NCBI GenBank assembly: GCA_016125005.1
Contig: WGMQ01000008.1
Location: 44,606 to 108,605, forward strand
DNA: 64,000 nt
Direction of reading: 5' to 3'
DNA from: a bacterium
GTDB taxonomy: Bacteria; Sumerlaeota; Sumerlaeia; SLMS01
Numbering within the stretch: the stretch's first letter is position 1; every line of letters begins with the position of its first letter. The notes under the pieces are model-generated. The model did not search any database, was not told the DNA's origin, and saw nothing but the letters and a program-made list of their open reading frames with translations. Of the stretch, positions 2,957 through 23,377 are shown piece after piece. Made by a program: the position numbers and the translations under genes.

Positions 2957-3378
2957 TCGGGATTCCTTACCGGGGCGATTGCGGGCAGATGGTTCGCGAA
3001 CCGCCCCCCGCAGAGCAAGCCCGCGTTTGGCAGGACGAGCAGGGGGGGGCGAGAGGGGGGTGCAGCTCCTCACCCAACCCATTGGTGGGCACGCACCATG
3101 TCTGGATCATCACCAAGGCGTTGATAAGTTCCGACGCGTGTCCCGGCAGGGACAACTGACTGTAGCCTGCCAATTCATTGGCGGGAACCGATTGATTGGG
3201 AATTCTCGTGCCGGATGGCACGACCGAAGGACGCGGTCGGCGCAAGATATGGCCGGGGCTCAGGCGTGCCATCCGGCACGCACTTTCACACAAACCCTCT
3301 GCAGGCTGCCCTTGAAACGGCCGGCTACCTCGGGCGTCCCATCGGGACGTTCCTACGGACGGTTTCATCCCCACAATC

Positions 3379-3485
3379 CGCTCGACAAACAGCTTTACGT
3401 TCGCGACCGTTGACCGGTGGTTGAACGACGATCAGGTGGGGTTGGTGATGGCGGAATCGAACAGCTCGGGGAGCCTCGCGGTGCT
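3379..3485. repeat. Direct repeat copy 1 (about 108 bp) upstream of a small membrane-protein gene
   Basis: ccgctcgacaaacagctttacgttcgcgaccgttgaccggtggttgaacgacgatcagg... is about 88% identical to copy 2 at 3936-4043. Confidence 0.8.
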
Positions 3486-3556
3486 CCCTTTCTCTATCGT
3501 AACCCGTGGAGGCCCGTTTTTGCGACCTTCGGTGAAGGAGAGAGGGATAGCCCCAT

Positions 3557-3916
3557 ATGCTAGGACAACGAACCCCCTTCGGCGATTCTCGGCTCACTGC
3601 GGTTTGGTTGTCTGGTCCATTGGGTGCGGGCGTGGGAGGTGTCATTGGCCTGAAGTACCTCTACCTCGATGGCGCTCTCGGTCTGCTTGGGGCGCTTGTT
3701 GGATTGTTCAACGGGTTTGCCCTGGGTCTCTTTCTTCTATTGATAGTTCCGGCAAAGGATCCGGTTCTGTCGGGAGCCGTTGCGTGTGGGCTTGGGGCGG
3801 CCACACTGCTTCTATTGCCATCGTTTGACCCCCTGCTGGACGGAGCGATTTCGAATGTTGTGGTTCCGATTTACTTCGCGTTGCTCGCCCCCCGTGTAGG
3901 AGTAGCGCGCGAGTGA
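3557..3916 (+). CDS. Small Gly/Leu-rich membrane protein (119 aa)
   Basis: ORF with 3 predicted TM helices. It lies immediately downstream of repeat copy 1. The RBS is weak. Confidence 0.35.
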   Translation: MLGQRTPFGDSRLTAVWLSGPLGAGVGGVIGLKYLYLDGALGLLGALVGLFNGFALGLFLLLIVPAKDPVLSGAVACGLGAATLLLLPSFDPLLDGAISNVVVPIYFALLAPRVGVARE

Positions 3917-3935
3917 CCGTCCCCGCCCTGCAAAG

Positions 3936-4043
3936 CCGCTCGACAAACAGCCTCACGTTCGCGACCGTTGATCGGCGGTTGAGCGACGATCAGGCGGGGT
4001 CGGTGTTGGCTGGGTCGAACCGCTCGGGGAGCCTTGCGATGCG
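3936..4043. repeat. Direct repeat copy 2 (about 108 bp)
   Basis: Second copy of the 3379-3485 element. It is followed by a second small membrane-protein gene. Confidence 0.8.
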
Positions 4044-4159
4044 GCATGATCAGGACGCCTTCGGCAACAGGCAGAGGTCGTGGTAGCTTGGAAACCTCGG
4101 CTTGGCGGTCCCATTTCATCTCCCAATTGTGAGCCATATAGAGGGTGGAGGACTCAAGA

Positions 4160-4326
4160 TGCCGTCGGTCAGTCGTCGCACATTGGTTGGTCTCCTGATT
4201 GCGGGCGGAGCTGTTCTTGTGCTCGGAATTGGTTTCGGTTCCCCCCTACGGGAGTTTGTGATCGGTGCGGGCGCCGGGTTGCTTGGAGTGTCGGCTGTCT
4301 GGCTCGTGGGTTCTTTCGCGCGCTGA
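4160..4326 (+). CDS. Small Gly-rich membrane protein (55 aa from ATG with GGAGGA RBS)
   Basis: A strong GGAGGA RBS lies 6 nt upstream of the ATG at 4160. The product is a two-TM Gly-rich peptide, analogous to the 3557 ORF. Confidence 0.35.
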
Positions 4327-4440
4327 CCGCCGTTTTCGGGGCTGTTCCCAGTACCGCTTGCAACCGGCGGGGCTGCGCTGCAAGGTCCTCGCGAGTTCAC
4401 GAGGCTCCGCTGCGCGGGGCCCCCGGAGGCAGTTTCGTTC

Positions 4441-6015
4441 ATGGGCAAGCCACTGGTCGCGGTCGTTTTGGGAACGCGGGCCGATTTCAACGTCATGAAG
4501 CGGTCGCTCGAATCGCTTCGCGTCATGGGCGTCCCTTATGTGTTTGAGATGGCTTCGGCCTGGAAGACGCCGGACCGCTTGGCGCGATTCGCCACCGGGG
4601 CCATCGACCAGGGAATCGAGGTCATCATCTGCGCCAGCGGCGGCTCTGCGGCCATTGCGGGCGTGATCGCCAGCCACACGACGCTCCCGGTCATCGCCAT
4701 CCCCATCGATGCGACTCCGCTTCGCGGCCAGGACGCGCTGTATAGCCTCGTGCAGTCTCCGCCCGGGCACCCCGTCGCTGTCGTCGGGATCAACAACAGC
4801 GAGAACGCCGTCCTCCTCGCCACGCAGATCCTCGCGAATAAATATCCGAGATTCCGTCAGGTGCTCCACCACGCCCGCACGGTGGCGGCCCAGAAGATCG
4901 AGGCCACCTGGAAGGAGCTCGCCAACGAGTATCCGGACCTCTGCCAGGTGGAGAAGACCGCGCCGAATCTTGGCCGCGGCACCGCCTCCGACCGTGAGAC
5001 GGATCCGGGGGACGACGTGACGCCCGCGCCCGATCAACCGACAGCGCTCAACCCGGACCGCATCCGGCCCGGCGCGACTCTTGGCCGCCCCAATCCCCTC
5101 CCGCGCATTGATGCGGAGGCCCTCGTCGCCACTCCCGAGCCCCAGGAACCCGGCAACCAGACGGAAGACCGCACGCCGGACTTCGAGGACAACAAGACCA
5201 ACGTTCGCCCCATCCCCGATTTTCCTCCGCCGCCTCGTCTTTCCGACCTGACTCCCCTTGCCGTTCCCGAGCGCCCCATCCGCGTGCAGGACACCCCGCT
5301 CGATGTGGAGCGCATTTCTCCGCCCACCCCCTTCGACAAGGCCATCAATCTGGCTGAGGCCTATGTCGATACGAAGGTCTTCCAGATCAAGCATGACGAT
5401 CCGGACGAGGACGTGCTGGCGCATGCCATGATGGTTCTTCTGGAGGGCGGCATCGTCGCCTTCCCGACCGACACGGTCTACGGCCTCGCCGCGGACGCCA
5501 CGAATGCCAGCGCCGTGAAGCGTCTATACGAGACCAAGGGGCACGAGGCCAGCCGCAAGTCTCTCTCCGTTCTCATCCACTCGCAGGACCTGCTCGAGAC
5601 ACTCGTTCGCGAAGTGCCCGCCTCGATCGAATCGGTGCTCGAGAAGCATTGGCCGGGTGGTCTTTCCGTGCTCTTCTACAAACACCCCAACGTGCTGCCG
5701 ACCGTGAGCGAATCGCCGTCGATTGCCGTGCGCATCCCCAACGACCCGCTGGCGCTCAAGGTGCTGGAACTGGTGGGGCGCCCGTTGGTCGTCATCAACG
5801 CGTCGTTGGGATCCTCGCCAGCGGCGGTCGACGCGCGCCATGTGCTGGATCGCTTCGAGGGGAAGATCAACTGCGTCCTCGACGCCGGGCCGTGCAAGAC
5901 CGGCAGCACGTCGACGGTTCTCAGTGTGTTGTCGGAACCTTTCGAGATCCTGCGCGACGGCGCCGTCCCCGCATCCGATATTCGCAAGATTCTCGGCGGG
6001 CGTCTGAAAGAGTGA
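4441..6015 (+). CDS. Fusion protein: N-terminal PurE-like (AIR carboxylase/N5-CAIR mutase fold) + Pro-rich linker + C-terminal TsaC/YrdC/Sua5-like threonylcarbamoyl-AMP synthase domain
   Basis: N-terminus: VAVVLGTRADFNVM...GIEVIICASGGSAAIAGVIASHTTLPVIAIPI...VAVVGINN (PurE family). C-terminus: GGIVAFPTDTVYGLAADATNASAVKRLYETKGHEASRKSLSVLI (YrdC signature). About 120 aa between the domains are Pro-rich and low-complexity. Confidence 0.8.
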   Translation: MGKPLVAVVLGTRADFNVMKRSLESLRVMGVPYVFEMASAWKTPDRLARFATGAIDQGIEVIICASGGSAAIAGVIASHTTLPVIAIPIDATPLRGQDALYSLVQSPPGHPVAVVGINNSENAVLLATQILANKYPRFRQVLHHARTVAAQKIEATWKELANEYPDLCQVEKTAPNLGRGTASDRETDPGDDVTPAPDQPTALNPDRIRPGATLGRPNPLPRIDAEALVATPEPQEPGNQTEDRTPDFEDNKTNVRPIPDFPPPPRLSDLTPLAVPERPIRVQDTPLDVERISPPTPFDKAINLAEAYVDTKVFQIKHDDPDEDVLAHAMMVLLEGGIVAFPTDTVYGLAADATNASAVKRLYETKGHEASRKSLSVLIHSQDLLETLVREVPASIESVLEKHWPGGLSVLFYKHPNVLPTVSESPSIAVRIPNDPLALKVLELVGRPLVVINASLGSSPAAVDARHVLDRFEGKINCVLDAGPCKTGSTSTVLSVLSEPFEILRDGAVPASDIRKILGGRLKE

Positions 6016-7527: not shown

Positions 7528-10500
7528 TCAGAATACCATCCAGATTTCGCCGACCGACGCATCCTGTGCGACCTGAATCGACATGCTCAGCGACGTCATG
7601 CCTGGAACGTCCGTCCATCCGGAAAGTTCCAGTGTCTGACCCGCCAGCGAGGACGGGATCGTGATCGTCAGCTCCGTCGACTCGCCCGGAAGGATCGTGG
7701 GGCGCGGGTGCGCCGCAATGACCGCTGGCACACCACCGGCGAAACGAAGCTGGCCGATATTCAGCGGCCCGAAGCCACTGTTCTCGATCGTATAGACAGC
7801 TGTCACTTCATCCGCGGCACCAGGAATGGTCACCGTGTCTGAGAAGCCAGCCAGCGGCGTGGCGTTTCGGGTGATCGTGACGGCAGGCAGACCCGCATCG
7901 CTTCCGTCCAGCGACCGGAGGTACGCTGTCAGGTTCGCCAGTTCCTCGGTCGTGAAGCCGCGCACGTGGGCGCCTGCAGCCGCCAGGTGATCGGGCGTCA
8001 CGATGCGGACCTCGTCCACGCTCAATCCACCCGACGGCCCGTTCTTCAGGACCGTCACGGTGTTCGTGCCTGCGGCAAACGCGATGGGGAAGCGGGCGAT
8101 GCGCCACTCGTTCGGCAGGTAGCTAGGGTTGTTGCCCGTCATCGGGAACGCCGCAGTGTTCGTGTTGGCGCCGATGCGAACGCCGAAGTTGCCGGTCGCA
8201 TAGCTCATGCTGTATCGGACGTCCACATAGCCTGTTCCTGCGGTGGATGAGACGATCCCCTCGAAGTTCAGGATACCGAGTTCATCGAAGCCAACGAACG
8301 CCCCCTGGTGCCACTCCTTCATGGGTGCCCAGTCGACTGTCTCGACGCTGACGGCACTGCTGGAAGTCGCGTCCTCCGCCTGCACGAGCAGTCCTCCAGC
8401 CGTGGTGAAGACCTCCTCAAGGGTCGTTGCGCTTCCGTTGTGCAGGTAGGGTGCCGAGTCGTGAAGGCCCAGCAACGTTGGCGTGTCTATACCGGTCAGC
8501 GTCGCGCCAAGGCGCGAGCCCGAGGCCACGTTCATGGTGCCGACGTCGTGCATGGTCCTGTCGGTGAAATCGGTCGCCGGGGAATGGCAGGACGCGCAGT
8601 TGTTCGCGGCAAAGAGGGCCTGTCCGGCAAGCGCCGCGGCACTGAGCGACCCATCGGATTGGCGATGGGGGCTGCGTGGCAGATGGCTGGTGCCGAGCGA
8701 GGCAACATAGGCCGCGAGTGCGTCCAGGTCCTCGCTGTGACCCGCCTTCGGTGCGCCGAGCGTGTCCATCAGGCTGGCCCAGTCGGAGTCCTGCAGGAAG
8801 CCCTCGCCGCCGAAGCCGTTGCGGATGTCGTTCTCGAAGTCCTGGATTTCGTCGAAGTTCGCGCTCCAGTGCACGTTGCCGTGCCAGGTCCCCGAGCGGC
8901 CGCGAAGGTCCGCCGTGTTACGGAATCCTTCGCCGCGATTTGTGAAGTCCCAGGTCCTGCCATCGTGTCCACCGGCGACGTGACAGGTCGCGCAGCTCAT
9001 GTAGCCCTCGGCACTCATGCGCGGGTCGGATGCGTGATAGAAGATCTGCTTCCCAAGGAGCACTTCATCGTGCAGCAATTCACGAGCGACCACCGGGATG
9101 GCTTGCGACGCGACGTTGCCATTGCCCGAGACGATGAAGGCATCGGCGCCCAGCACCGTTATCGTGCGATCCATGAAGTCGGCTGTATAGACACGGCTCG
9201 TCGACGGATCGACGACAAGTCCCTGTGGTGCCAGACCCGTCTGCCAGCGGGTCGAGATCGTGCCGGGGTCACTGGGATTGAAGAAGTCCAATACATCCAG
9301 GACCGCGACCTGCGCGTTGCCTTGCAGCGAGATGAAGGCGTAGTCACCGAGGGGGCTGAAATCGATCGCGGTGGGGGAGTCGCTGTTGTCTATATCGAGA
9401 CGATAGCTTGTGTCCTCGGCCCCCGAAGCCAGATTCACCAGCATCATCATCGCGCGGACCGTGTTGTCCTGTGAGAGGGCCTGATTGGGAGCCGAGAAGG
9501 TGCCACGCTCGGTGTTGTCCTTCTTGCCCACAATCCACGCCCATTCCCCGTCCGGTGAGATGTTGATACCGGCCAGATAGTTGGGCACACCGCGGCCGCC
9601 CGCGCTGCTATCGACGGTGTGGCTGCGTGCGAGGCGAATGGTTCGCGTCAGCGTCAGCGTCATCGTGCCGAGCGCCACATCGTAGACCGATCCTTGGTGC
9701 TCGCCGGAAATGAACCGCGTGATCAGCGCACGAGTGCCGTCGTGGGTGATCGCGATGGCGCGCGGATAAGGGCCGAGCACCACGCTGTGCGTTTGCACCC
9801 GTGTCGTCGCATCGAAGCGCCGCAGCGTGCCGTCGCCTTCGCACGACACGAGGAGGGCGCTGCCATTCGGCAGTGCGGCCACCGCCACAGGGCGTGAGCC
9901 GTAACCGGTGCCCATCGTCGCGATCAGCGCGCCGGTTGCGGCATTGAGTACATGAAGCTCGTCACTCTCGCTCGATGCGACCCACAGGGTCCCGTCTCCG
10001 GGAAGCGCGACGCTCATGGGATGCTTTCCAACGGCACTTTCCCAGAGGATCGCGTTGGTCGCCGTTACGACGGCGGTTACCGTCCGCGCATCAGGGTTGG
10101 CTGTATAGACAGTACCAGAAACCGAATCAATCGTGATCATGCTGCTGCGCGTTGCCCCCGGGTTGGCGGGAGGCGTCAACACGCTGATGGTCCTCGACAC
10201 GGCGTTCAGCGAACCCTGCGCGTCGCGCACCTGGACGGTCACCTGATAATGGCCTGCGGCTGTATAGACATGATTCGCGGACGTTGCCGCGCCCCAATCG
10301 GTCCTCGCTGTTCCATCGCCAAAGTCCACGCGATACTCCACGGCACCACCCTCAGGATCGCTGCCCGACCACGACAGCGCGACCGAGGCACCGGGCTGCG
10401 CGACTTCCGGCGACGCGATCACTGCGCCCACCATGGGCGGCTGGTTCCCTGCGCCGAGCGAGGCCCCAGTCGAGAAGGTGAAGCTGTACGCCTCCAGCGG

Positions 10501-11979
10501 ATTCCCCATCGCGTCCTGAATCGCGGCGGTCAGCAGCACCTCGTAGGTCGTGTTCTGCGCGAGGGGACTTTGCGGAGTCACTGTCAGTAGCTTGCCCTGA
10601 CCGAAGGAATGCCAGGTCGGCACCGGATCGCCGCCCAGCGGCCGCACGATCAGCGAGACACCATCCACGATGGTCTCGGTCCGAAGCGTCTCGGGGATCG
10701 AAAGTGTAATCGGGCAGACCGTGGAGAAGTTCGTCTGTCCCGCCGTCGGCACGTGGTAGAGCACGTAAGGCGAGCGCGTGTCCGGCTCGGCCTGATGGGC
10801 CCAGATCGCCATACCCGGCCCCAGCGTCCCGTAGCCGCCCGTGAAGACGAGATTCCCCACCGGCAAGGCGAACTGGCTCGCGTCGAGCGTCACATCGTTC
10901 GTCGCCAACGTCAGCTCGACCTCGAAGGTCCGCATGTCGATCTTGTAGTTGTTCATGAAGGCGTACTCGTCCTGGAACGTCACGTACTGATTCGATCCGG
11001 GAAGGTTCCGATCAGCCACGACCTTGAGGTCGGTCGGATCGGAAAAGTCCACCACCATAAAGCCCGCCTGGCTACCCGGCCCGCCCTCATTGTCGCGGCG
11101 CGGGAAGAAGACGTAGTGCCCGTAGACCTCGGGCCAGTAGCCGCCGGGGTTCTCCTCCTTCAGCACATCCAGCAGGATGGGATTCGTCGGGTCCGAAATG
11201 TCATAGGTGCAGACACCCGTGCCGGTCATGTCGGCTGCATAGACCAGGATATTCCCCATGATGAACGGAAAGCCCACCACGCCGGTCTGACCCAGATGAT
11301 CCCAGCTGTGAAGGATCGCGGGACCGGTGCGGGCTCCACCGTTCGCCCAATCATAGATATACTGACCCGGGCCGCGTCGCACGGCGATGAAGGAATTGCC
11401 GCCGACGGGGCTGTAGCTCCAGAAGTCCTCCACGCCCCAGGGCGATTGGGTCCCCGAACGATTGATCCCGCCGACGAGAAGCCCCGTGTCCTCGATGTCA
11501 GCGTGCGTCAGGCCACTGCCTAGAATCGCCGGACCGCTTCCGCCAATGCGAAAGCTGTTCACCCAATGATCGTCCGATCCATCGCAGAGCGATCCGTCGC
11601 CGCTCACGCAATGCGGCCCGATGTATAGATCGTTCCCCGAATGGAAGTAGGCGTGGGCATGAAAGCCGGTTGCTCGGAAGGGAAACACAGTCACCTGGGG
11701 AGAGGCCGGATCGCTGACGTCGTATAGACGCACCAAGTTGTCGGCGCCCCCCTGGCTTCCGGGGGCCTCGGGAACGGTGATGATGCGATCGCCGTGAAAG
11801 GCGATGATGGCGGTGCGGCCCTGCTCGGGCGAAATCGGTCCGGAAATCAACTCACCGGGTGTGCGCGCGACGTTCGGGAACGGAATGGCCAAGGCAAACT
11901 GGGCGGGCGCGATTGCTGCAAGAACCAGGATGCGGGATACTAGGGCTGTGGGGGTCACGGGAGGGAGACGCTTCCTCAA
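7528..11979 (-). CDS. Very large secreted multidomain protein: signal peptide, beta-propeller/YVTN-like repeats, PKD domain, and a di-haem cytochrome c peroxidase-like domain (two CxxCH motifs)
   Basis: Haem motifs CATCHVAGGHDGRTW and CASCHSPATDF. PKD-like segment YRVDFGDGTAR...HVYTAAGHYQVTVQV. A signal-peptide-like N-terminus. The track start is a TTG; an in-frame GTG at about 11958 is an alternative. Confidence 0.75.
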   Translation of the reverse strand: MRKRLPPVTPTALVSRILVLAAIAPAQFALAIPFPNVARTPGELISGPISPEQGRTAIIAFHGDRIITVPEAPGSQGGADNLVRLYDVSDPASPQVTVFPFRATGFHAHAYFHSGNDLYIGPHCVSGDGSLCDGSDDHWVNSFRIGGSGPAILGSGLTHADIEDTGLLVGGINRSGTQSPWGVEDFWSYSPVGGNSFIAVRRGPGQYIYDWANGGARTGPAILHSWDHLGQTGVVGFPFIMGNILVYAADMTGTGVCTYDISDPTNPILLDVLKEENPGGYWPEVYGHYVFFPRRDNEGGPGSQAGFMVVDFSDPTDLKVVADRNLPGSNQYVTFQDEYAFMNNYKIDMRTFEVELTLATNDVTLDASQFALPVGNLVFTGGYGTLGPGMAIWAHQAEPDTRSPYVLYHVPTAGQTNFSTVCPITLSIPETLRTETIVDGVSLIVRPLGGDPVPTWHSFGQGKLLTVTPQSPLAQNTTYEVLLTAAIQDAMGNPLEAYSFTFSTGASLGAGNQPPMVGAVIASPEVAQPGASVALSWSGSDPEGGAVEYRVDFGDGTARTDWGAATSANHVYTAAGHYQVTVQVRDAQGSLNAVSRTISVLTPPANPGATRSSMITIDSVSGTVYTANPDARTVTAVVTATNAILWESAVGKHPMSVALPGDGTLWVASSESDELHVLNAATGALIATMGTGYGSRPVAVAALPNGSALLVSCEGDGTLRRFDATTRVQTHSVVLGPYPRAIAITHDGTRALITRFISGEHQGSVYDVALGTMTLTLTRTIRLARSHTVDSSAGGRGVPNYLAGINISPDGEWAWIVGKKDNTERGTFSAPNQALSQDNTVRAMMMLVNLASGAEDTSYRLDIDNSDSPTAIDFSPLGDYAFISLQGNAQVAVLDVLDFFNPSDPGTISTRWQTGLAPQGLVVDPSTSRVYTADFMDRTITVLGADAFIVSGNGNVASQAIPVVARELLHDEVLLGKQIFYHASDPRMSAEGYMSCATCHVAGGHDGRTWDFTNRGEGFRNTADLRGRSGTWHGNVHWSANFDEIQDFENDIRNGFGGEGFLQDSDWASLMDTLGAPKAGHSEDLDALAAYVASLGTSHLPRSPHRQSDGSLSAAALAGQALFAANNCASCHSPATDFTDRTMHDVGTMNVASGSRLGATLTGIDTPTLLGLHDSAPYLHNGSATTLEEVFTTAGGLLVQAEDATSSSAVSVETVDWAPMKEWHQGAFVGFDELGILNFEGIVSSTAGTGYVDVRYSMSYATGNFGVRIGANTNTAAFPMTGNNPSYLPNEWRIARFPIAFAAGTNTVTVLKNGPSGGLSVDEVRIVTPDHLAAAGAHVRGFTTEELANLTAYLRSLDGSDAGLPAVTITRNATPLAGFSDTVTIPGAADEVTAVYTIENSGFGPLNIGQLRFAGGVPAVIAAHPRPTILPGESTELTITIPSSLAGQTLELSGWTDVPGMTSLSMSIQVAQDASVGEIWMVF

Positions 11980-12035: not shown

Positions 12036-13031
12036 CTACCCCTGCTTGGGCCCACCATCCTTCACGGGGACGCGCTCGCGGGAGAGCAACGTCGCCCGAG
12101 CCATCGTATAGTTCACCACGGCCACACCAAGCAGTACCACCGCACCGCCGCCGACCATCCATGGTGTCACTCGCTCATTGAGCAGCAGCACTCCCACCGC
12201 CAGCGCGACCACTGTATTCAGGTAGGTCGTCGTCCCGGCTACGTCGGCGGGAAGCGTCATCACTACATACATATAGCTGACGTACCCGAGCCACGAGCCG
12301 ACGACAATCAGGTGGATCACTGCGCCAATGGCGGCCGGGGAGATCTCGCGCACCTGCCAACTCCCAGAGAGCGTGCAGACGATCGCCGCCGCCACGCCTC
12401 CCGCCAGGCTCTGCGCCGCTGCGGTCATGAGCGGATGCGTACCGGGTCGGTAGCGCTTGGCGATGAAGCTCCCGAGCGCCCATGAAAGCGGCGACAGTAC
12501 CAGCGCCCCCATCGCCCACCAGAACATCGGCCCGCGCACCGACTCGCCCGCCGTGTGGCCTCCGCCGAGCGCCTCGCGCACGTCTGGATAGACAATCACA
12601 AACAGCCCCATGAATCCCACCGCCAGCCCCGCCCAGGCCAGCCGTGGAACCCGCTCGCCTGCGAACGCCGAAAGGCCCGCAAAGATCAGCGGCGCCGAGT
12701 TCACCATCAGCGCCGCGAAGACGCTGTCCACGTGCTGTTGGGCCCATGCCACCAACACATTCGCGCAGCACAGCAACAGGCATCCAACGGGAGCCAGCCG
12801 CAGCCAATCGCGTCGTGATGGAAACTGGATTCCGAAGCATCGCAGCGCCACCATCAGCGCGGCCCCGGCAAACACGAAGCGGATCGCCGCCAGCGTCAGC
12901 GGAGGAAACGCCGTGGTCGCCACCTTGATCCCCGCATAGGTCGTCCCCCACGCGATGCTCACGCAGACGTAGGCGGCAAGGGACAGGTACTTCCGCTTCG
13001 CCACCGGCGGTCTCTCGGGGATTGTCGTCAA
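12036..13031 (-). CDS. EamA/DMT-family (drug/metabolite) transporter, 10 TM
   Basis: Two EamA-like halves with a hydrophobic 10-helix profile. It overlaps purQ by 4 nt, suggesting an operon. Confidence 0.75.
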   Translation of the reverse strand: MTTIPERPPVAKRKYLSLAAYVCVSIAWGTTYAGIKVATTAFPPLTLAAIRFVFAGAALMVALRCFGIQFPSRRDWLRLAPVGCLLLCCANVLVAWAQQHVDSVFAALMVNSAPLIFAGLSAFAGERVPRLAWAGLAVGFMGLFVIVYPDVREALGGGHTAGESVRGPMFWWAMGALVLSPLSWALGSFIAKRYRPGTHPLMTAAAQSLAGGVAAAIVCTLSGSWQVREISPAAIGAVIHLIVVGSWLGYVSYMYVVMTLPADVAGTTTYLNTVVALAVGVLLLNERVTPWMVGGGAVVLLGVAVVNYTMARATLLSRERVPVKDGGPKQG

Positions 13032-13699
13032 GCTTTCGCCAATGCACCCATCAGGGAGTCGAAGATCACGCGCCCATCGACGCCACCCAGTTCCGTCTCC
13101 ATGGCACGTTCCGGGTGCGGCATCATGCCGAGCACGTTCCCCTCGCGGTTCATGATCCCCGCGATGGAGGCCACCGATCCGTTCGGGTTGTCGGCGTACT
13201 CGAACACCACCTGCCCGTTGTCCTGGAGCGACTTCAGGCCGTCGTTGTCGATGAAGTAATTCCCCTCTCCGTGGGCGATCGGGACGCGGAGTCGCTGGCC
13301 CGCCGACGCGGCGTTCGAAAACGCTGTGCCCGCCTGCTTCACCACCAGATCCGTCCAGAGGCAGCGGAACTTGAGGCCACTGTTACGATGAAGGGCGCCG
13401 GGAAGCAGTCCCGCCTCGCAGAGAATCTGGAAGCCGTTGCAGACGCCTAGGACCAGGCCGCCGCGGCTCGCGTGCTCGCGAACCGATTCCATCGCGCGGG
13501 AAAAGCGCGCCAGCGCGCCACAACGCAGGTAGTCACCGTAGCTGAAGCCACCCGGCACGGCGATCAGGTCCACGGGCTCCGTGAGGACGTCCGAATGCCA
13601 GAGCTTCACCAGATCCCAGCCCATCAACTTCACGGCACGGTGCATGTCCTGGTCACAGTTCGAACCGGGGAATGTGATGACGGCCACCTTGAGTGACAT
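13028..13699 (-). CDS. purQ: Phosphoribosylformylglycinamidine synthase subunit PurQ (glutaminase)
   Basis: VAVITFPGSNCDQDM, GVCNGFQILCEAGLLPG (Cys nucleophile), MPHPER... Confidence 0.9.
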   Translation of the reverse strand: MSLKVAVITFPGSNCDQDMHRAVKLMGWDLVKLWHSDVLTEPVDLIAVPGGFSYGDYLRCGALARFSRAMESVREHASRGGLVLGVCNGFQILCEAGLLPGALHRNSGLKFRCLWTDLVVKQAGTAFSNAASAGQRLRVPIAHGEGNYFIDNDGLKSLQDNGQVVFEYADNPNGSVASIAGIMNREGNVLGMMPHPERAMETELGGVDGRVIFDSLMGALAKA

Positions 13700-13712
13700 G
13701 GGTCAGGCTCCT

Positions 13713-14429
13713 TCAGGAAATCTGGCGCACTTCGGCGCCGTGGTCGTGCCCGATGACGAGGGCCTTGCAATAGCCGATGAACAGGCCCGTTTCCATCACA
13801 CCAACAACCGTCTTCAGCCGCTGCTGCATCGCCATGGGATTGGCGATCCCGTTCGAAAATCGACAATCGACGATGTAGTGCCCCTCATCGGTCAGGAAGG
13901 TCGCACCATCCGCGCCCGTGCGCAGCCGTGTCTCGCATCCTAATGCCGTCAGCTTGGCGATGGTTGTCTCATGTCCGAATCGGACGATCTCCACCGGCAG
14001 GCGAAAGCCCAGACCAAGCCGTTCCACCAGCTTTGATTCGTCCACCACGATCAAGTGACGACGCGACCAATCGGCCACCATCTTCTCACGGAGCAATGCA
14101 CCGCCGCCCCCCTTGATCATCGCGCCATCGCGGGTCACTTCGTCCGCGCCATCGATGTATAGATCGATGCGATGATCGCGACCCAGCGGGATGATTGGTA
14201 CGCCATGCTCCGCGGCCAGCGTCTCCGTTGCCTTGGAGGTGCAGACTCCCTTGATCTGGAGCCCCTGCTCGCGCACGCGCTTTCCAAGTGCCTCGACCAG
14301 ATAGGCCGCCGTGGAGCCCGTTCCCAGGCCCACGACCATTCCCTGCTCCACGTGCGCCGCGGCTGCAAAGCCCGCATGCTTCTTTTGTTCTGCTGCGCCC
14401 ACCATCGGCTCCTTGCCCGTCCCGACCAC
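13713..14429 (-). CDS. rpiA: Ribose-5-phosphate isomerase A
   Basis: GLGTGSTAAY, DLYIDGADEV, KGGGGALLREK motifs. Confidence 0.85.
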   Translation of the reverse strand: MVGTGKEPMVGAAEQKKHAGFAAAAHVEQGMVVGLGTGSTAAYLVEALGKRVREQGLQIKGVCTSKATETLAAEHGVPIIPLGRDHRIDLYIDGADEVTRDGAMIKGGGGALLREKMVADWSRRHLIVVDESKLVERLGLGFRLPVEIVRFGHETTIAKLTALGCETRLRTGADGATFLTDEGHYIVDCRFSNGIANPMAMQQRLKTVVGVMETGLFIGYCKALVIGHDHGAEVRQIS

Positions 14430-16072: not shown

Positions 16073-17299
16073 TCAGCGGACCTCGATCCGTTCTTGAGCG
16101 ACGACTTCCAATTCCTCGCCCCGGAAATAAGTGGGAACGATTTCATCGCCGACTCGTGTCAGCCGCAGCAGCAGACCCGCGTCCTCCTCCTCGGACTCCG
16201 ACGCTGCCTGCTGAAACGCCTCCACAGCGTCCCAACTATGCGAGGTGGCGAAGACCTGCACGTCCAGCTTCTTGGCGAGTTGGAAAACCAGCCGCCATGC
16301 GTCGTATTGGACGGTGTGGTGCAGGCCGTTCTCGAACTCGTCGATAAGGAGGAGTCCGCCCTCCACATTGACCATCGAAAGGATGATACCGAACAGGCGA
16401 TTGATGCCGTCGCCCAAAGACCTGAGCGCGACAGGTCGGAGGAAGCGATCGACTCTAGCAACTGCGATACGCTCTGATTCAGCATTCTCCACCATGCCCA
16501 CGCCCCTGATGGATGGATCGATAAGCCTTAGGGCCTCGACGACCTGCTCCTCTCGATCTGTCAGGGCCACCATATCCCAAAGCCTTCCCAGTCGCCTCTG
16601 CGGTTGAGCGATCGCGGCATGAATGAGCAGTGAGGCACACCGGGCAGGCCGTGCTTGCCTGTCCAGTTTGCCTCGCAAGCATTCCACTGTAGCTTCGTAG
16701 TCGGTATCGGTCCCGATTTCGTCATCCTCGTGCTTGCGGGTAACGGTTCCGCTCCACTGAGTCGCTGTGGGGGGGATTCGAGCTGTACCAAGCTCATCGG
16801 TTGTCTGAAGTGGACCGACCTCTCGGGCCGATCCCATGTACAGCTGTATGCCAGTCTTCCCACACTCCGTGGTGCCCTCAATCGATAGGGGATGACTCGC
16901 GCTGGCAAGCTCGTAATTCCAGAAAAGGCTGCTGAACTCCGCAAGAAAGCGGTCAGGAGTGATGAGATCCCCCTTCCCCAGAAACATGGATAGCTCACCA
17001 CGAATCCTCTGGAGTTCGCCTATCATGTGAAACGAACCGTTAGTCGCGAATATACTGAGCGCCTCAAGCACCGACGACTTGCCCGTATTGTTCCGCCCCG
17101 TGATCATGTTCACACGGGCGAGGTTCTCCAGGCGCAGTTCCCGGAAGGCCCGAAAGTTCTTGATCGTTAAACTCGTTAGCGGCGCCGCCACGTCTGTCGT
17201 TCCTGACCGCGAAAGGGAATCGGTGGGCGACGTGATCAGATTGTCGCCCCGTTTGATGGTCAGGCTCTTCCTTTCCGCCCGGAATGCAAGCCCTACCAT
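16073..17299 (-). CDS. ABC/AAA_21-family (OLD/RloA/AriA-like) ATPase
   Basis: Start of ABC ATPase fold LTIKNFRAFRELRLENLARVNMITGRNNTGKSSVLEAL (Walker A). Walker B LLLIDEFENGLH. H-loop ATSHS. The N-terminal extension in the track ORF may be an overcall. Confidence 0.8.
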   Translation of the reverse strand: MVGLAFRAERKSLTIKRGDNLITSPTDSLSRSGTTDVAAPLTSLTIKNFRAFRELRLENLARVNMITGRNNTGKSSVLEALSIFATNGSFHMIGELQRIRGELSMFLGKGDLITPDRFLAEFSSLFWNYELASASHPLSIEGTTECGKTGIQLYMGSAREVGPLQTTDELGTARIPPTATQWSGTVTRKHEDDEIGTDTDYEATVECLRGKLDRQARPARCASLLIHAAIAQPQRRLGRLWDMVALTDREEQVVEALRLIDPSIRGVGMVENAESERIAVARVDRFLRPVALRSLGDGINRLFGIILSMVNVEGGLLLIDEFENGLHHTVQYDAWRLVFQLAKKLDVQVFATSHSWDAVEAFQQAASESEEEDAGLLLRLTRVGDEIVPTYFRGEELEVVAQERIEVR

Positions 17300-17889: not shown

Positions 17890-20586
17890 ATGGCTGATCA
17901 AACCGTCCACCCATCCCTGAAGCCCGGCACCGAGGATATCAGGTTCTTCCTGAACGACCGGGAGGTCGTGGGCAAAAAAGGTGAAACGATCATCACCGTG
18001 GCTGCCCGCGAGGGCGTCTACATCCCGCACTATTGCTGGCACCCGTCGCTCAGCGTCGCGGGCAACTGCCGCCTGTGCCTCGTGGAGGTCCACCTCCCCG
18101 ATCCGCGCAACCCCGATGCGCCCGCCAAACCTGCTCCCAAGCCCGTCATCGGCTGCCAGACCCCGATCAGCAACGGCCTTCGCGTCTATACCGAGTCCAA
18201 GGTCGCCCAGGAATGCCAGCAGGGCATGATGGAGTTCCTGCTCGTCAACCACCCGCTCGACTGCCCCATCTGCGACCGCGGCGGCGAGTGCCAGCTCCAG
18301 CGCTACTCCATGGAGTACGGCGCCGGGCACACGCGCATGGCCGACGAGAAGCGCAAGTTCCACAAGCCCCAGGCCGACCCCCTCATCGACATCGAGCGCA
18401 ACCGCTGCATCATGTGTACCCGCTGCGTCCGCTTCAACGACGAGGTCGGTGGCGAGCACGTCATGGGCGTCTTCGACCGCGGCGAGGGGAACTACATCGG
18501 CACCTTCGGCCAGGGCCCCGTCTCCAACATCCTGTCCGGCAACATCATCGACATTTGCCCCGTCGGCTGCCTCACCTCCCGTCCCTTCCGCTTCAAGGCC
18601 CGTGTTTGGGAACTCGCCCAGACCCAGTCCACCAGCATCTGGGACGCCTCTGGTGCCAAGGTAACCCACTGGACGCGCAATCGCAAGCTGATGCGCACCA
18701 CGCCCCCCTCCCGCAAGGCCCACGACCGCTACACGGTCAACGAGGACACGGAGGAGTTCATCGACAACATCACCCGCTTTGGGTCCGACTTCGGCCTGCA
18801 CGCGGATCGTTGGGACGAGAGCCGCATCCGCATCGGCGGAACGCTGATCCCGGGCGCCTTCGTCGAGGCGGTTCGCCAGGCGGCCGGCTCGCTCGCCAAG
18901 ACCAAGGTCAACCATGGCGCCGATTCCATCGCGGTCCTCGTGTCGCCCCGCGCCACGATGGAAGAGGGCTTCCTCGCCGCCAAGTTTGCCCGCACGGTGA
19001 TCGGCAACGACAACGTGGACTGGCGCATGAGCTTTGCCACGGCGGCCTCCGCCGACGCGGCTTCGCTGGCTTTCCAGCACGCTGACGGTGACCTGAACGA
19101 CGGCTTCAGTGCCGTGGTCCTGGTCAACGGCGACTACCTGCATCAGGTCCCGACTTTTGCCATGCGCGTGAAGGAATATGCGCGCCTGAACAACAAGCCG
19201 GTCATCATGATCGGCCACCACCATGACGCCTACTTCTCCAAGTGTGCCGGTCGCCGTCAGTACGGCTGCCGTCCCGCGGAGACCTCCCGCGCGCTTGAGT
19301 TGCTGTCCCTCGCCATCAAGGGCGATGCGGCGGGCAACGGCGAACTGGCGAAGATCTTCTCCGTCGCCGAGTCCGAGGTTGCCTCGCTGGTCGATCTGCT
19401 GAAGGGAGTCGCCGGCAAGGCGCTCCTGATCCAAAGCCTCGAAGATATGAACGGCGCCTACCTGCCGTCGGAAGTTCCCGCGGCCCTGACGCTCAAGGCT
19501 GCCCTCGGCGCCACTTGGAAGTACATTCCCGTGCTTCGCGACCGTAATGCCTTCGGCCTGTACGCTGTCGGCGCCCAGCCCGGACGCCTCCCCGGCAGCG
19601 AGGAAGCGGTTCGCAAGGCTTGGAAAATCAATGAGAAGGCGCAGATTCCGACCGCCGGTGGCCAGCACGCCCGCGATCTGGTCGCCGCCATCGAGGAAGG
19701 GCGCATCAAGGGCCTCCTCGCCCTCGGCGCCGATGTGCTTTACAGCTACCCCGATCAGGACCGGCTCCTCGCGGCTCTGGAGAAGCTGGAAACCTTCGTG
19801 GTCTCCGACCTCTTCAATTCCGAGATCACCCGCCGCGCCACGGTTTTCTTTGCCGCCGCCTCCAACCTGGAGCGCGATGGCGTGATGGCTGACCTGGAAG
19901 GCAACCTGGCCCGTCTCAAGGATGTGGACGGCCCGACCGGTGGCGCTCGCCCCGATTGGGAGACCCTAACCGGCATCGCGACCATGATGGGTTCGACCGC
20001 CTTTGCCTACGAGTCCGTCGAGGACGTCTTCAACGAAATGATCCGTCTCGTGGCTCCCGGCTTCCGTGGCAGCTTCACAGGACTGGAACTCGCCGGACCG
20101 GCCAACGACCACTCGGTGCAGGATCCCGGTGGTGCCCGCCGCCGTACCCCGGCCTACAACCCCGGCGACTATCGCGTCGACGGCGCGCATTTGCGCTGGT
20201 CGTCCGAGCCCTTTGCCGGTGCGATTCCCGCTGTTGCCGCCGAGGCGCCCGCCGCCGCCGGTCAGTTCCTCCTGACTTGGGGCGAGCACGTGCAGGGCGA
20301 CGACTACCACCTGAACCACGCCTCGATTGCTCACCTGCTGAAGGCCAAGCCCTACGTCGAGGTTCATCCGGCGGATGCGGCGACCCTCGCGCTGGAGGAC
20401 GGCAAGCGTGCCGTGCTGACCGTCGGGACCGAGTCCATCGAGGTCACGGCACGGGTCCGCAAAGGCCCTGCTCAGGGAACGCTTTATTTCCCGGCAGGTC
20501 TGGGCGGGCTCAAGCTGACGGGCTTGGGCGAATCGTTGACGGCAGGGCTTCAACCCGCGTTGGAGACGGAGTTGGCCTCCGTTTGA
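17890..20586 (+). CDS. nuoG: NADH-quinone oxidoreductase subunit G (long form with molybdopterin-oxidoreductase-like C-terminal domain)
   Basis: 2Fe-2S motif CWHPSLSVAGNCRLCLVEV. 4Fe-4S motifs NHPLDCPICDRGGECQLQ and CIMCTRCVRF. 898 aa. Confidence 0.9.
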   Translation: MADQTVHPSLKPGTEDIRFFLNDREVVGKKGETIITVAAREGVYIPHYCWHPSLSVAGNCRLCLVEVHLPDPRNPDAPAKPAPKPVIGCQTPISNGLRVYTESKVAQECQQGMMEFLLVNHPLDCPICDRGGECQLQRYSMEYGAGHTRMADEKRKFHKPQADPLIDIERNRCIMCTRCVRFNDEVGGEHVMGVFDRGEGNYIGTFGQGPVSNILSGNIIDICPVGCLTSRPFRFKARVWELAQTQSTSIWDASGAKVTHWTRNRKLMRTTPPSRKAHDRYTVNEDTEEFIDNITRFGSDFGLHADRWDESRIRIGGTLIPGAFVEAVRQAAGSLAKTKVNHGADSIAVLVSPRATMEEGFLAAKFARTVIGNDNVDWRMSFATAASADAASLAFQHADGDLNDGFSAVVLVNGDYLHQVPTFAMRVKEYARLNNKPVIMIGHHHDAYFSKCAGRRQYGCRPAETSRALELLSLAIKGDAAGNGELAKIFSVAESEVASLVDLLKGVAGKALLIQSLEDMNGAYLPSEVPAALTLKAALGATWKYIPVLRDRNAFGLYAVGAQPGRLPGSEEAVRKAWKINEKAQIPTAGGQHARDLVAAIEEGRIKGLLALGADVLYSYPDQDRLLAALEKLETFVVSDLFNSEITRRATVFFAAASNLERDGVMADLEGNLARLKDVDGPTGGARPDWETLTGIATMMGSTAFAYESVEDVFNEMIRLVAPGFRGSFTGLELAGPANDHSVQDPGGARRRTPAYNPGDYRVDGAHLRWSSEPFAGAIPAVAAEAPAAAGQFLLTWGEHVQGDDYHLNHASIAHLLKAKPYVEVHPADAATLALEDGKRAVLTVGTESIEVTARVRKGPAQGTLYFPAGLGGLKLTGLGESLTAGLQPALETELASV

Positions 20587-20751
20587 CGGGGGTGAAGTGA
20601 CAGGAAGCGGGGCCGGAAGTGGTCCAGTCTGCGATTGACTCACCTCGGTTGGGTCACCTTAAGTTCCGCGTCCTCAAGGTAGGGTTTGTGAATTTTTTCT
20701 CAAACTGGCCGGGCATGAGTGCGTCCGCCACACCACGACAGGCTAAAGGGC

Positions 20752-22185
20752 ATGCAATTTCTCTTTGATTTCTTGGGACAATTCATCGGTGGTCCGGCCA
20801 ACGCCTTCATGGTGGTGGTCGCGCTGATCAAGATCGCTCTGATCCTGGGCGGTATCCTGCAAGTCGTCCCCTTCATCATCCTTTTCGAGCGCAAGATCAT
20901 CAGCTGGGTGCAGGACCGACCCGGCCCGAACCGCGCTGGTCCCTGGGGCGTTCTCCACGGCATCCTCGACGGTGCGAAGCTCTTCTTCAAGGAGACGATC
21001 ACCCCGTCGGGCGTCGATAAGTCCCTCTACCTGCTCGCTCCTGTCATCGTCGTCATTCCCGCGTTTGTCGCGCTTTGCCTCGTGCCGGTTGGCCCCATCA
21101 TCGAGGGCTCTCACCTGGCGGCGCTGGCCAACTTCTTCGGCCTCGATCCGGCGATGGTCGGTCCTTCCGGCCAGATCAACCGGATTGCCTTCGCGATCAC
21201 CAACCCCAACGTCGGCATCCTCTACGTTCTCGCGATCACCTCAGTGGGCGTCTACGGGATAACGTTGGCCGGTTGGGCGTCCAACAACAAGTGGTCGCTC
21301 CTCGGCGGCATCCGTGCCTCCGCCCAGATGATCAGCTACGAAATCACGCTCTCCCTTGCCATCATTTCGGCGATTCTCCTCTCGGGGAGCCTCAATCTGT
21401 ACGACATCATCGGCTCTCAGACCGCCCCGATGAATGGCGCATCGGTCAATCCGCTCGCGTTCCTTCACTGGCACGTCTTCGCGGCGCCGGTGGCGTTCCT
21501 GCTGTTCATCGTTGCCATGTTCGCCGAGACCAACCGCGTGCCGTTTGACTTGGCGGAAGCGGAGCCGGAACTGACCGGTGGCTTCCACACCGAATACTCG
21601 TCGATGCGCTTCGCGCTGTTCTTCCTCGCCGAGTACGTCAACATGATCATCGTCAGCGCCATGTGCTCCACGCTGTTCCTTGGCGGCTACCTCGGGCCGG
21701 TCATGCTCGACTGGGATCAGTGGGCACAGTGGGCCAGCAACCTGGTTCCGCCGCAGACCGCGGGACTGTACCCGCTCGTTGTCATCGCTGGCTACCTCGC
21801 TGGCCCGGCGGTGATCTTCCCGGCCAAGATCGCCTTCTTCCTGTTCCTGTTCATCTTCGCCCGCGCCACGCTCCCCCGTTTCCGCTACGACCAGCTAATG
21901 AACCTTGGTTGGAAGCAGCTCCTGCCGATCGGTCTCGTGAACTTCGTGCTCGTGGCCATTACGGTCGGCATCGACCTCGCGATCCGTGCAGGAATGGACG
22001 GCGGGCTCGAGGCGAACAAACACATGCTGCTGACCTCCAAGCTGACCCTTGGTGCTGTCACACTCGCGCTCCTGCTGATCTACGACCGCTTTGTGCTGAC
22101 CCGCAACCGGCAGAAGATGCTGGCCAGTGAGTACCGCGGGCTCGGCGCCCGTCGCGACTACCCGACGCCGTTTGTGGCGTCGTGA
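20752..22185 (+). CDS. nuoH: NADH-quinone oxidoreductase subunit H (with C-terminal extension)
   Basis: GWASNNKWSLLGGIRASAQMISYEITLSL, and AFLLFIVAMFAETNRVPFDLAEAEPEL with the ETNR...PFDL...E-ELxxG motif. The start was set at MQFLFDF. Confidence 0.9.
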   Translation: MQFLFDFLGQFIGGPANAFMVVVALIKIALILGGILQVVPFIILFERKIISWVQDRPGPNRAGPWGVLHGILDGAKLFFKETITPSGVDKSLYLLAPVIVVIPAFVALCLVPVGPIIEGSHLAALANFFGLDPAMVGPSGQINRIAFAITNPNVGILYVLAITSVGVYGITLAGWASNNKWSLLGGIRASAQMISYEITLSLAIISAILLSGSLNLYDIIGSQTAPMNGASVNPLAFLHWHVFAAPVAFLLFIVAMFAETNRVPFDLAEAEPELTGGFHTEYSSMRFALFFLAEYVNMIIVSAMCSTLFLGGYLGPVMLDWDQWAQWASNLVPPQTAGLYPLVVIAGYLAGPAVIFPAKIAFFLFLFIFARATLPRFRYDQLMNLGWKQLLPIGLVNFVLVAITVGIDLAIRAGMDGGLEANKHMLLTSKLTLGAVTLALLLIYDRFVLTRNRQKMLASEYRGLGARRDYPTPFVAS

Positions 22186-22214
22186 TCCGGCGAAAGACCT
22201 GAGGAGAACCACCT

Positions 22215-22763
22215 GTGATCTTCGAACTGCTCAAGGGCCTGAACATCGCCGCCCACCACATGGTCCGCTACATGGCGGGACCGGGAAACGTGACCGTGGA
22301 GTATCCGGAGGTGAAGCGCGAGCAGCCTCCCTTCTTCCGTGGACGTCACCGCCTGCAACGCTACAAGGACGGTCTCGAGCGCTGCGTCGGTTGCGCGCTC
22401 TGTGCTGCCGTTTGTCCCTCGGAGGCCATCTATCTTGAGGCCGCCGAGAACACCCCCGAGCACCGCGTCTCGGCGGGGGAGCGCTACGCCGAGGTCTACC
22501 AGATCCATCTGCTCCGCTGCATCTTCTGCGGATTCTGCGAGGAAGCCTGCCCCGAGAATGCCATCATCATGGGACCGAGCTTCGAGTTGGCCATGAGCAA
22601 GCGCACCGACTTTATCGCCGACAAGGGCGACATGCTGGACGCCCCCGAGAAGGGCTTCGGCGACTACCACGAGTACGATCCTTACATTTCACACGTCACC
22701 GCCGAGTCGGACAAGAAGGCAAAGGCTGATCCGTGGGACAAGTCCCACGCGGCCGGGCATTGA
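22215..22763 (+). CDS. nuoI: NADH-quinone oxidoreductase subunit I (2x[4Fe-4S] ferredoxin)
   Basis: CVGCALCAAVCP and CIFCGFCEEACP. GTG start. Confidence 0.9.
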   Translation: MIFELLKGLNIAAHHMVRYMAGPGNVTVEYPEVKREQPPFFRGRHRLQRYKDGLERCVGCALCAAVCPSEAIYLEAAENTPEHRVSAGERYAEVYQIHLLRCIFCGFCEEACPENAIIMGPSFELAMSKRTDFIADKGDMLDAPEKGFGDYHEYDPYISHVTAESDKKAKADPWDKSHAAGH

Positions 22764-23374: not shown

Positions 23375-23377
23375 TCC

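Follow-up and report, generated by a model that had tools for sequence, protein, structure and literature searches.

A PurE-like domain fused to a TsaC/YrdC domain

The window, the whole stretch of DNA that was analysed, is 64,000 nucleotides (nt) of contig WGMQ01000008.1 (positions 44,606 to 108,605 of the forward strand; assembly GCA_016125005.1) from a bacterium of the Sumerlaeota (Sumerlaeia; SLMS01). The gene considered here lies at 4441–6015 (+) and joins, in one chain, a PurE-like domain to a domain of the TsaC/YrdC/Sua5 family, whose members make threonylcarbamoyl-AMP (TC-AMP) for the tRNA modification N6-threonylcarbamoyladenosine (t6A). It is a single open reading frame from the ATG at 4441 to the TGA at 6013–6015, encoding 524 amino acids (aa); a stop or frameshift that might separate the two halves was looked for within it, and none was found. 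The N-terminus fits the family consensus MxxPLVGVVxGS, and the GC content at third codon positions (GC3), 0.82, is similar to that of the adjacent genes.

Domain searches recognise both halves. Pfam places AIRC (PF00731) at residues 6–148 (E 8.4e-44) and Sua5_yciO_yrdC (PF01300) at residues 332–507 (E 8.8e-43); the SUA5 domain (PF03481) has no Pfam match in the protein, and the chain ends at the YrdC core. Among PDB sequences, the N-terminal half matches class I PurE (E 1e-24 down to 2e-35; 35–40% identity), and the C-terminal half matches Sua5/TsaC2 at ~1e-37 and YciO far more weakly, at 1e-11. Foldseek aligns the PurE half with A. aceti PurE at 1.1–1.2 Å (TMt ~0.9 to PurE structures) and the YrdC half with T. 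maritima TsaC2 (TmTsaC2, 9dg5) at 1.6 Å. An AlphaFold model of the monomer (model 1; 92-sequence alignment, read as predicted local distance difference test (pLDDT) values) has confident domains at residues 1–~175 and ~297–524, a low-confidence segment between them, and a predicted template modelling score (pTM) of 0.54. A first, sequence-only reading of this DNA had proposed such a fusion with a proline-rich linker of about 120 aa; Pfam, Foldseek and AlphaFold bear the fusion out, the linker has the expected length and composition (Table 1), and the peptides quoted in that reading are all present. Other families were considered for the N-terminal half, but class I PurE was upheld, LarB (NF033503, 32.8 bits against a cut-off of 175) and class II PurE both being rejected on scores.

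Decay of the PurE active site

In class I PurE the active-site histidine is His41 in L. pneumophila and His45 in E. coli, and a P-loop serine of the Ser14 type binds the substrate phosphate (PMC10484210). The catalytic histidine is a studied residue, and the PDB and Foldseek matches of the window protein include the PurE mutant structures H45N, H45Q and H59x. In the window protein tryptophan replaces this histidine and alanine the phosphate-binding serine (Table 1), and the score against the NCBIfam purE equivalog (TIGR01162), 138.3 bits, falls short of the cut-off of 149.6. The suspicion, raised earlier from the altered P-loop, that this half is non-canonical or non-catalytic was therefore well placed, and the window protein is very probably no longer a textbook N5-carboxyaminoimidazole ribonucleotide (N5-CAIR) mutase.

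Similar losses recur across the family. The catalytic histidine is kept in 53 of 92 fusions, its place being taken elsewhere by L, Q, W, S, T, Y, F or E, while the second conserved histidine survives in only 14 of the 92; the presence or absence of His41 requires at least 14 parsimony changes on a neighbour-joining (NJ) tree. Within the crown clade, the monophyletic group P0001–P0061 to which the window protein belongs, mean pairwise identity is 0.61 for the PurE-like domain, 0.57 for the YrdC domain and 0.31 for the linker, and Arg13, Gly30, Glu36 and Phe50 are fixed, crown-specific residues of the PurE half. Because the PurE half has lost its catalytic residues yet matches the YrdC half in conservation, it is probably a maintained non-mutase module, most likely a non-catalytic scaffold. 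Every class I PurE enzyme is an octamer with 422 symmetry, and in PAICS a PurE octamer still forms the core and bears a second enzyme (PMC10484210); by this analogy an oligomerising hub would be the simplest role for the retained module, and the conservation of the module would be compatible with an octameric 422 assembly.

A remodelled phosphate site in the YrdC half

Active-site residues of the YrdC half were mapped through an alignment with Pa-Sua5. The threonine site is complete, with T35, R121, S181 and R195 of Pa-Sua5 corresponding to T345, R431, S491 and R505, all invariant in 92 fusions. At the ATP/pyrophosphate (PPi) site, K56, R58, S143, N145, S147 and G148 of Pa-Sua5 correspond to K366, H368, N453, S455, G457 and S458. 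The KxR/SxN (KRSN) tetrad is the field's criterion for a functional TsaC/Sua5 and is needed for ATP binding and activity; E. coli K50A and R52A do not complement, and TsaN R455A is inactive (PMC10321239, PMC4615747, PMC2685093, PMC6004061, PMC10484737). YciO, which lacks the K and the R, is ~10^4-fold slower at making TC-AMP and fails to complement. The window protein retains one of the four tetrad residues (K-G-H ... N-A-S), and the TsaC-specific threonine that precedes SxN is Ile452. The stretch KGHEASRKSLSVLI, which the sequence-only reading took as the YrdC signature, is this degraded KxR region with K-G-H in place of K-x-R, and with three of the four residues gone the TsaC half is not the canonical one assumed there. 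On balance, the window protein is probably not a textbook TC-AMP synthase.

The change is shared by the crown, whose consensus is K-G-(H/Q/R/K/Y/G/A) ... (I/R)-N-A-(A/S/T). KGR is retained in 11 of 57 members, the lysine is lost in 7, and four have none of the Lys, Arg, Ser and Asn of the tetrad. New residues have also become conserved: Asn453 is crown-specific (97%), as is Cys485 (Table 1). Lys366 and Lys373 are present in 37/37 members of the subclade that includes the window protein, and its sister subclade has new invariant arginines at 427 and 452. Lys366 is lost in 7/23 of the sister subclade against 0/37 of the window subclade (p = 6e-4), a comparison that is phylogenetically confounded. 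To judge from these alignments, the phosphate site looks rebuilt and not abandoned, with positive charge kept. A YciO identity for this half was considered and rejected, given the far weaker PDB match, the retained lysine, and the position of the window protein on the NJ tree, where it sits within the fused TsaCs that bear KRSN.

Conserved motifs in the linker

The linker is more than a spacer, and in the crown it forms a tether of 140–240 aa with four near-invariant motifs (Table 1). The first, EYPDLCxPxxTAP (163–175), is predicted to be folded onto the PurE module. An intermediate group (P0063–69, P0086) has the first, second and fourth motifs, together with an intact KGR/SAN and a dead PurE histidine. 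IxPGA is confined to the crown and coincides with the loss of KRSN, which is weak evidence because the coincidence represents a single evolutionary event.

A second model, of residues 196–524 from a crown-only alignment, raised the pLDDT of the TPEPQ block from ~55 to 77 and of RIRPGA from ~47 to 64, with the PPPP block at 77–78 and the spacers still at 50–60. Since the motifs gain confidence when only crown sequences are aligned, the model suggests that they dock on the YrdC head. A related arrangement is known in Sua5, where an essential linker hairpin with Pro-Gly-Met closes the active site, and where the non-catalytic, Rossmann-fold SUA5 domain is required for stability (PMC6004061).

Table 1. 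Features of the fusion gene, and purine genes elsewhere in the window (positions in the window).
Feature	Position	Strand	Basis or remark
GGAGG, Shine-Dalgarno-like	4425–4429	+	11 nt 5' of ATG, from sequence
Complete coding sequence, 524 aa + TGA	4441–6015	+	Identical to NCBI MBI1290100.1, annotated 'threonylcarbamoyl-AMP synthase [bacterium]'
PurE-like (AIRC fold) module with long C-terminal helix, residues 1–175	4441–4965	+	PF00731, Foldseek, AlphaFold pLDDT >90
P-loop GTRAD (canonical GSxSD); Ala14 in place of phosphate-binding Ser; Arg13 crown-specific, conserved	4471–4485	+	PDB alignments, family table
40s loop SAWKTP (canonical SAHRTP); Trp41 (4561–4563) in place of catalytic His	4555–4572	+	PDB alignments, family table
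70s loop ASGGSAAIAG (canonical AGGAAHLPG); second conserved His replaced by Ala	4633–4662	+	PDB alignments, family table
EYPDLCxPxxTAP extension of PurE-like module, residues 163–175	4927–4965	+	pLDDT 74–95, confidently folded
Pro-rich linker, residues 176–296, 121 aa, 21% Pro	4966–5328	+	pLDDT ~45–57, model 1
Linker motif TDPxxExTPxP (also written TDPGxxxTPxP), residues 187–197	4999–5031	+	Crown: T187 93%, T194 and P195 87%
Linker motif RIRPGA, residues 207–212, crown only	5059–5076	+	I208, P210, G211 98%; A212 95%
Linker motif LVATPEPQEPG (crown LVxTPxPQEPG), residues 228–238	5122–5154	+	T231, P232, P234, E236, P237 100%
FPPPP stretch, residues 261–265, then short helix	5221–5235	+	P262 88%; pLDDT 76–78
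YrdC/TsaC-fold module, residues 297–524	5329–6012	+	PF01300, TIGR00057, Foldseek; without SUA5 C-terminal domain
Thr345, threonine-site residue	5470–5472	+	Pa-Sua5 mapping (PMC6004061)
KxR equivalent K366-G-H368; Arg essential in E. coli TsaC and TsaN replaced by His	5536–5544	+	Pa-Sua5 alignment, family table
R431, threonine-site residue	5731–5733	+	Pa-Sua5 mapping (PMC6004061)
T-SxN equivalent I452-N453-A454-S455 (canonical T-S-A-N)	5794–5805	+	Pa-Sua5 alignment, family table
Cys485, crown-specific, 98% (near-invariant); Thr in canonical members	5893–5895	+	Crown column conservation
S491, threonine-site residue	5911–5913	+	Pa-Sua5 mapping (PMC6004061)
R505, threonine-site residue	5953–5955	+	Pa-Sua5 mapping (PMC6004061)
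PurQ and RpiA, adjacent	13028–14429	-	Purine genes unlinked to fusion gene
FolD and Hpt, further along window; unlinked to fusion gene	54077–55105, 57461–58033	-	Purine synthesis/salvage genes

Distribution of the fusion family

Among 5.8 billion protein clusters searched, 94 have both PF00731 and PF01300, namely the window protein itself and 93 more, and all of the named ones are from Candidatus Sumerlaeota, Sumerlaeia or Sumerlaeaceae. An exhaustive hidden Markov model (HMM) search of 1.84 billion representatives found ~75 (50% clustering) at two-domain-level scores, and a metagenome scan with a crown-specific linker profile returned one locus. The window protein is present in identical form in an NCBI metagenome-assembled genome (MAG) and in an independent Logan assembly. 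The PurE-TsaC fusion is a genuine, conserved family across the Sumerlaeota. Its architecture is already in the databases, auto-annotated as one or the other enzyme, and we found no description of the fusion or of the degraded tetrad. The t6A papers and reviews searched name fusions with SUA5, HemK and Kae1-like partners (HypF, TobZ), as well as TsaN, and make no mention of PurE; the Sumerlaeota literature searched for purine or t6A genes held nothing relevant. The earlier remark that the fusion is undescribed thus holds in the t6A literature searched.

A sister class with the architecture PurE-like - Clp_N - YrdC (600–685 aa) was recovered by the exhaustive search and Pfam. Its PurE-profile scores drop from 92 bits to undetectable, and those of the wider family from 219 bits to undetectable. 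Some of its members have an intact KxR/SAN; in others the tetrad has been lost in many ways, and even threonine-site residues are lost, a degraded example from Candidatus Sumerlaeaceae being MBX7245554.1. The Clp_N-class architecture is listed for P0091, P0367, P0372, P0383, P0384, P0386, P0391, P0394, P0400, P0401, P0405 and others. Independent losses of KRSN also occur in P0356, P0364 and P0375. Among new representatives, the full tetrad is absent from 17 of 51 N-terminally extended YrdC proteins, compared with 2 of 70 standalone or Sua5-type proteins (p = 5e-6). Judged by these motifs, the PurE-YrdC architecture is repeatedly retained while its catalytic signatures disappear.

Another N-terminal partner is found in P0403 (781 aa), where an NTP_transferase and hexapeptide-repeat (GlmU-like) region is fused to a C-terminal canonical YrdC. 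The nearest non-fused Sua5 matches were considered as a Sumerlaeota TsaC and set aside, the named ones coming from other phyla (e.g. Dethiobacter, Oscillospiraceae).

Origin of the fusion

One related locus (L009, GCA_964431755.1) is split: a canonical purE (177 aa) and a canonical yrdC (240 aa) share 25 nt, and pgpA comes next. In two loci with canonical fusions (L003 and L006) pgpA is likewise next downstream, and in L003 purH lies directly upstream. These shared neighbours indicate that the fusion arose from a purH-purE-tsaC-pgpA neighbourhood. At the split junction (L009:5304–5328) a run of ten A residues (A10, 5312–5321) lies between the purE stop and the yrdC start (GAC GAA AAA AAA AAG GGC TGA). 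Here yrdC is in the -1 frame relative to purE, and one added A, or a -1 slip of the ribosome or during transcription, would give an in-frame fusion of 410 aa; the run is identical in three assemblies (L009, L010, L011). It could be a programmed slippage site that gives both products, or a mere one-step mutational path between split and fused forms, and the junction appears compatible with either state as the ancestral one.

Basal, short-linker members (P0070–76, P0079, P0081, P0084, P0091, P0092) keep all PurE motifs (GSxSD, SAHRTP, AAHLPG), and all short-linker fusions have K-x-R ... T-S-A-N. For basal members with both complete active sites that adjoin purH, simple bifunctionality is plausible, and the window protein itself appears to descend from a genuinely bifunctional PurE-TsaC fusion formed from adjacent, overlapping purE and tsaC genes.

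Two further loci carry a standalone canonical purE beside the fusion. In one (L013) the PurE domain of the fusion is still canonical; in the other (L014), where purH is also present, it is degraded (VADEDE, SAHLMP, TAGREANLPG). A single purE duplication at the base of the derived clade was considered as the cause of all PurE decay and rejected, as the standalone PurE family of this kind (P0127 type) is confined to 4 clusters, after which matches drop abruptly to generic PurEs.

Genomic context

The gene is followed, after a 13 nt gap, by a class IV aminotransferase and then a DUF533 protein. No purE, yrdC, purH or pgpA lies within 10 kb of members of the ETFQE group, the intermediate group or the crown, and no conserved operon partner was found there; the neighbours at other crown loci are unrelated, so there is no conserved operon. 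In the ~1.36 kb upstream (3083–4440) there is neither a confident gene nor an Rfam family nor a sigma-70-like promoter; its open reading frames (3557–3916, 4102–4326) are all small and hydrophobic, and its AT skew is strongly negative.

The window contains PurQ (13028–13699; 314 bits against 212), FolD and Hpt (Table 1), from which it would follow that de novo purine synthesis is kept and that a working PurE is to be expected elsewhere in the genome. A contig search with the standalone PurE of L014 gave no Sumerlaeota locus among the matches listed (at least 600, generic PurE of all phyla). A 170-aa PurE of the P0194 type, in a purD-purE-purF-purM operon, was considered as the true PurE of the crown and was not used, its host taxon not being established.

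Other genes of the window include a long nuo-type NADH:quinone oxidoreductase operon (17890–29957, +), the first gene of which encodes an 898-aa NuoG-like subunit, and a 707-aa fusion of DJ-1/PfpI with an F420_oxidored-type NADP oxidoreductase (51946–54069, +). On the minus strand are a 1483-aa secreted protein (7528–11979) with Big_5 and PKD Ig-like domains, a beta-propeller-like region, a di-haem cytochrome c peroxidase/MauG-type module and RoxA-like cytochrome c motifs; a 1976-aa open reading frame (43078–49008) whose sole match is a weak FG-GAP repeat, with TPR and F420-ligase-like genes on its flanks; and a 681-aa caspase-domain (Peptidase_C14) protein (55050–57095). Also on this strand is a 408-aa AAA_15/AAA_21 ATPase (16073–17299) with an AbiEii, OLD or RecF-like N-terminus and weak matches to retron/anti-phage effector ATPases; its GC3 of 0.67 is below that of its neighbours, and the gene may serve in defence and lie on a small acquired segment.

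Possible functions of the crown-type protein

The explanation we tentatively favour, while giving it slightly less than an even chance, is that both halves have been repurposed in the crown and that the protein is a paralogue of a canonical TsaC encoded elsewhere in the genome. The dead PurE module would be kept as an oligomerising hub, from which as many as eight YrdC heads would project, each on a tether of ~120 residues. The tether motifs might dock back on the YrdC head in a lid-like manner, as the Pro-Gly-Met linker of Sua5 does, or might recruit partners, and the head would still bind L-threonine and a phosphorylated or adenylated ligand without the canonical ATP/PPi tetrad. A canonical PurE, and probably a canonical TsaC/Sua5, would be encoded elsewhere. 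We know of no report, among thousands of genomes, of a sole TsaC that has lost the R, S and N, and a second canonical gene is favoured on this ground.

Several observations weigh against this explanation. The window and ~233 kb of related loci yielded no second gene of the PurE or YrdC family, so that canonical copies elsewhere are inferred and not observed; nor were any shared NCBI accession blocks found that would signal paralogues within one genome, and the P0127-type standalone PurE is limited to one small lineage. The protein passes the NCBIfam model for TC-AMP synthase (TIGR00057; 158.3 bits against a cut-off of 123.2). The intact threonine pocket, the kept charge and the strong purifying selection would fit a still-active TC-AMP synthase equally well. 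A test of whether the RIRPGA Arg compensates for the KxR Arg was not significant (p = 0.23). Finally, the NJ tree is rooted on the split locus, whose own polarity is uncertain, and the polarity of motif states was therefore judged by comparison with PurE and TsaC in general.

Many of the same observations lead to the main alternative, a doubtful but credible one, in which the protein is the sole TC-AMP synthase of the cell and a third mechanistic type beside TsaC and Sua5. Its ATP/PPi site would be rebuilt around Lys366, Lys373, Asn453 and Cys485 (with Arg427 and Arg452 in the sister subclade), the N-terminal linker would supply a lid (IxPGA, TPxPQEPG) like the PGM/HY lid of Sua5, and the dead PurE would stabilise the protein as the SUA5 domain does. 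TsaC/Sua5 is universal and usually single-copy, no other YrdC gene was seen in the window or the related loci, and this alternative requires one extra gene (purE) where the repurposed paralogue requires two. The passing TIGR00057 score and the invariance of the whole threonine site are in its favour, as is the maintenance of positive charge, with losses of K366 confined to members in which R427 and R452 are fixed. The clade without KRSN is exactly the one in which IRPGA appears, and the conserved motifs gain predicted confidence next to the YrdC domain. By analogy, the linker and non-catalytic domain of Sua5 are essential (PMC6004061). On the other side, the R52A and R455A substitutions abolish function in E. 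coli TsaC and TsaN, the lid-bearing Sua5 still keeps its tetrad, and YciO is a precedent for what happens without the K and the R. Position 368 is highly variable in the crown, where four members lack the Lys, Arg, Ser and Asn altogether, and the missing covariation between the linker Arg and the KxR Arg weighs against this alternative as well. That the crown-type protein is the only YrdC-family protein of these bacteria, and makes TC-AMP although the tetrad's Arg, Ser and Asn are gone, by means of a rebuilt site, a tether lid and a dead PurE octamer core, is possible, and we consider it rather doubtful.

We regard it as very unlikely that the window protein is a true bifunctional N5-CAIR mutase and TC-AMP synthase in which CO2 or a carboxyl group for the TsaC reaction is handled or channelled by PurE, an arrangement that the sequence-only reading had implied. 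Both folds are present, TsaC uses bicarbonate/CO2, and the basal members next to purH retain both complete active sites. The window protein, however, has other residues at the positions of the PurE catalytic His, phosphate-binding Ser and second His, and across the family the catalytic His has been lost repeatedly. The model predicts a disordered tether of ~120 aa with no confident interface between the domains, and Sua5 has its bicarbonate site within the YrdC domain (PMC6004061). Ancestral gene adjacency and overlap account for the fusion, and a supply of CO2 from PurE to TsaC finds no support. That the gene is an artefact of assembly or sequencing, or a pseudogene in decay, is hardly worth entertaining, for although the split and fused forms of a related lineage are a single A apart and easily interconverted, the window junction has no homopolymer, GC3 is like that of the neighbours, the identical protein occurs in two independent assemblies, the 94 clusters come from many samples, and both domains are strongly conserved and have gained new invariant residues.

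Comparison with known systems

Sua5/TsaC2, the best match of the C-terminal half in both sequence and structure, resembles the window protein in combining a YrdC head with a second, non-catalytic alpha/beta domain and a conserved linker motif that contains Pro-Gly. The extra domain of the window protein is, however, N-terminal and PurE-derived, whereas that of Sua5 is the C-terminal SUA5 domain; the tether is ~120 aa long and lacks an HY motif, compared with a Sua5 linker of ~40 aa with PGM and HY, so that RIRPGA is only analogous; and Sua5 keeps the KxR/SxN tetrad that the window protein has lost. By descent the YrdC domain is of the TsaC (E. coli YrdC) type, and as in TsaC the chain ends right after the YrdC core. 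Basal fusions share with TsaC the T-S-A-N with its TsaC-specific Thr and a Lys at the Asn62 position, whereas the window protein has K-G-H ... I-N-A-S for K-x-R ... T-S-A-N and adds an N-terminal domain and a motif-bearing linker.

YciO offers a parallel as a YrdC-fold protein in which tetrad residues are missing, most of the active site is kept, the automatic annotation is TsaC and the in vivo role is not TC-AMP synthesis. Its descent is different, though, and it has no fused domain, while the window protein keeps the Lys and has Asn in place of the Ser. HypF, TobZ and TsaN also hold a YrdC-like domain within a larger polypeptide, but they keep KxR/SxN and are fused to a Kae1/TsaD-like partner that uses the adenylate, and the window protein has no Kae1-like domain.

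On the PurE side, the window protein shares the fold of class I PurE closely, at the rmsd and identity given above, but differs in its replaced catalytic His, phosphate-binding Ser and 70s-loop His, in its score below the equivalog cut-off and in being fused. PAICS, the animal PurE-PurC fusion, is a precedent for a PurE octamer core with another enzyme domain on each subunit (PMC10484210), the octamer of the window protein being only presumed from it. The two domains of PAICS are both active and catalyse consecutive steps of one pathway, whereas the partner in the window protein comes from an unrelated pathway and its PurE half appears catalytically dead.

Implications for the Sumerlaeota and for annotation

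Few enzymes are truly universal, and TsaC/Sua5 is one of them; in genomes it is recognised by the KxR/SxN tetrad. The crown clade carries a TsaC-derived protein that is automatically called 'threonylcarbamoyl-AMP synthase' and yet fails the tetrad criterion. If the protein is the sole synthase, a large part of the phylum would have a new route to TC-AMP, the universal first step of t6A synthesis would have an enzyme of a third mechanistic class, and the tetrad would not be indispensable. If it is instead a repurposed paralogue, the annotation would be wrong and the YrdC family would have a new function, a problem comparable to that of YciO.

The family can also be read as a stepwise record of the birth of a fusion, possibly by way of a slippery A-run, and of its change into something else. 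The recorded stages run from members with both sites intact, through those in which PurE is dead after a duplicate and those in which the linker has expanded with new motifs, to those in which the TsaC site is remodelled, and in the Clp_N class both domains are degraded past recognition. The family therefore provides a natural series for the study of pseudoenzyme evolution, and a warning for the annotation of t6A and purine genes in candidate phyla.

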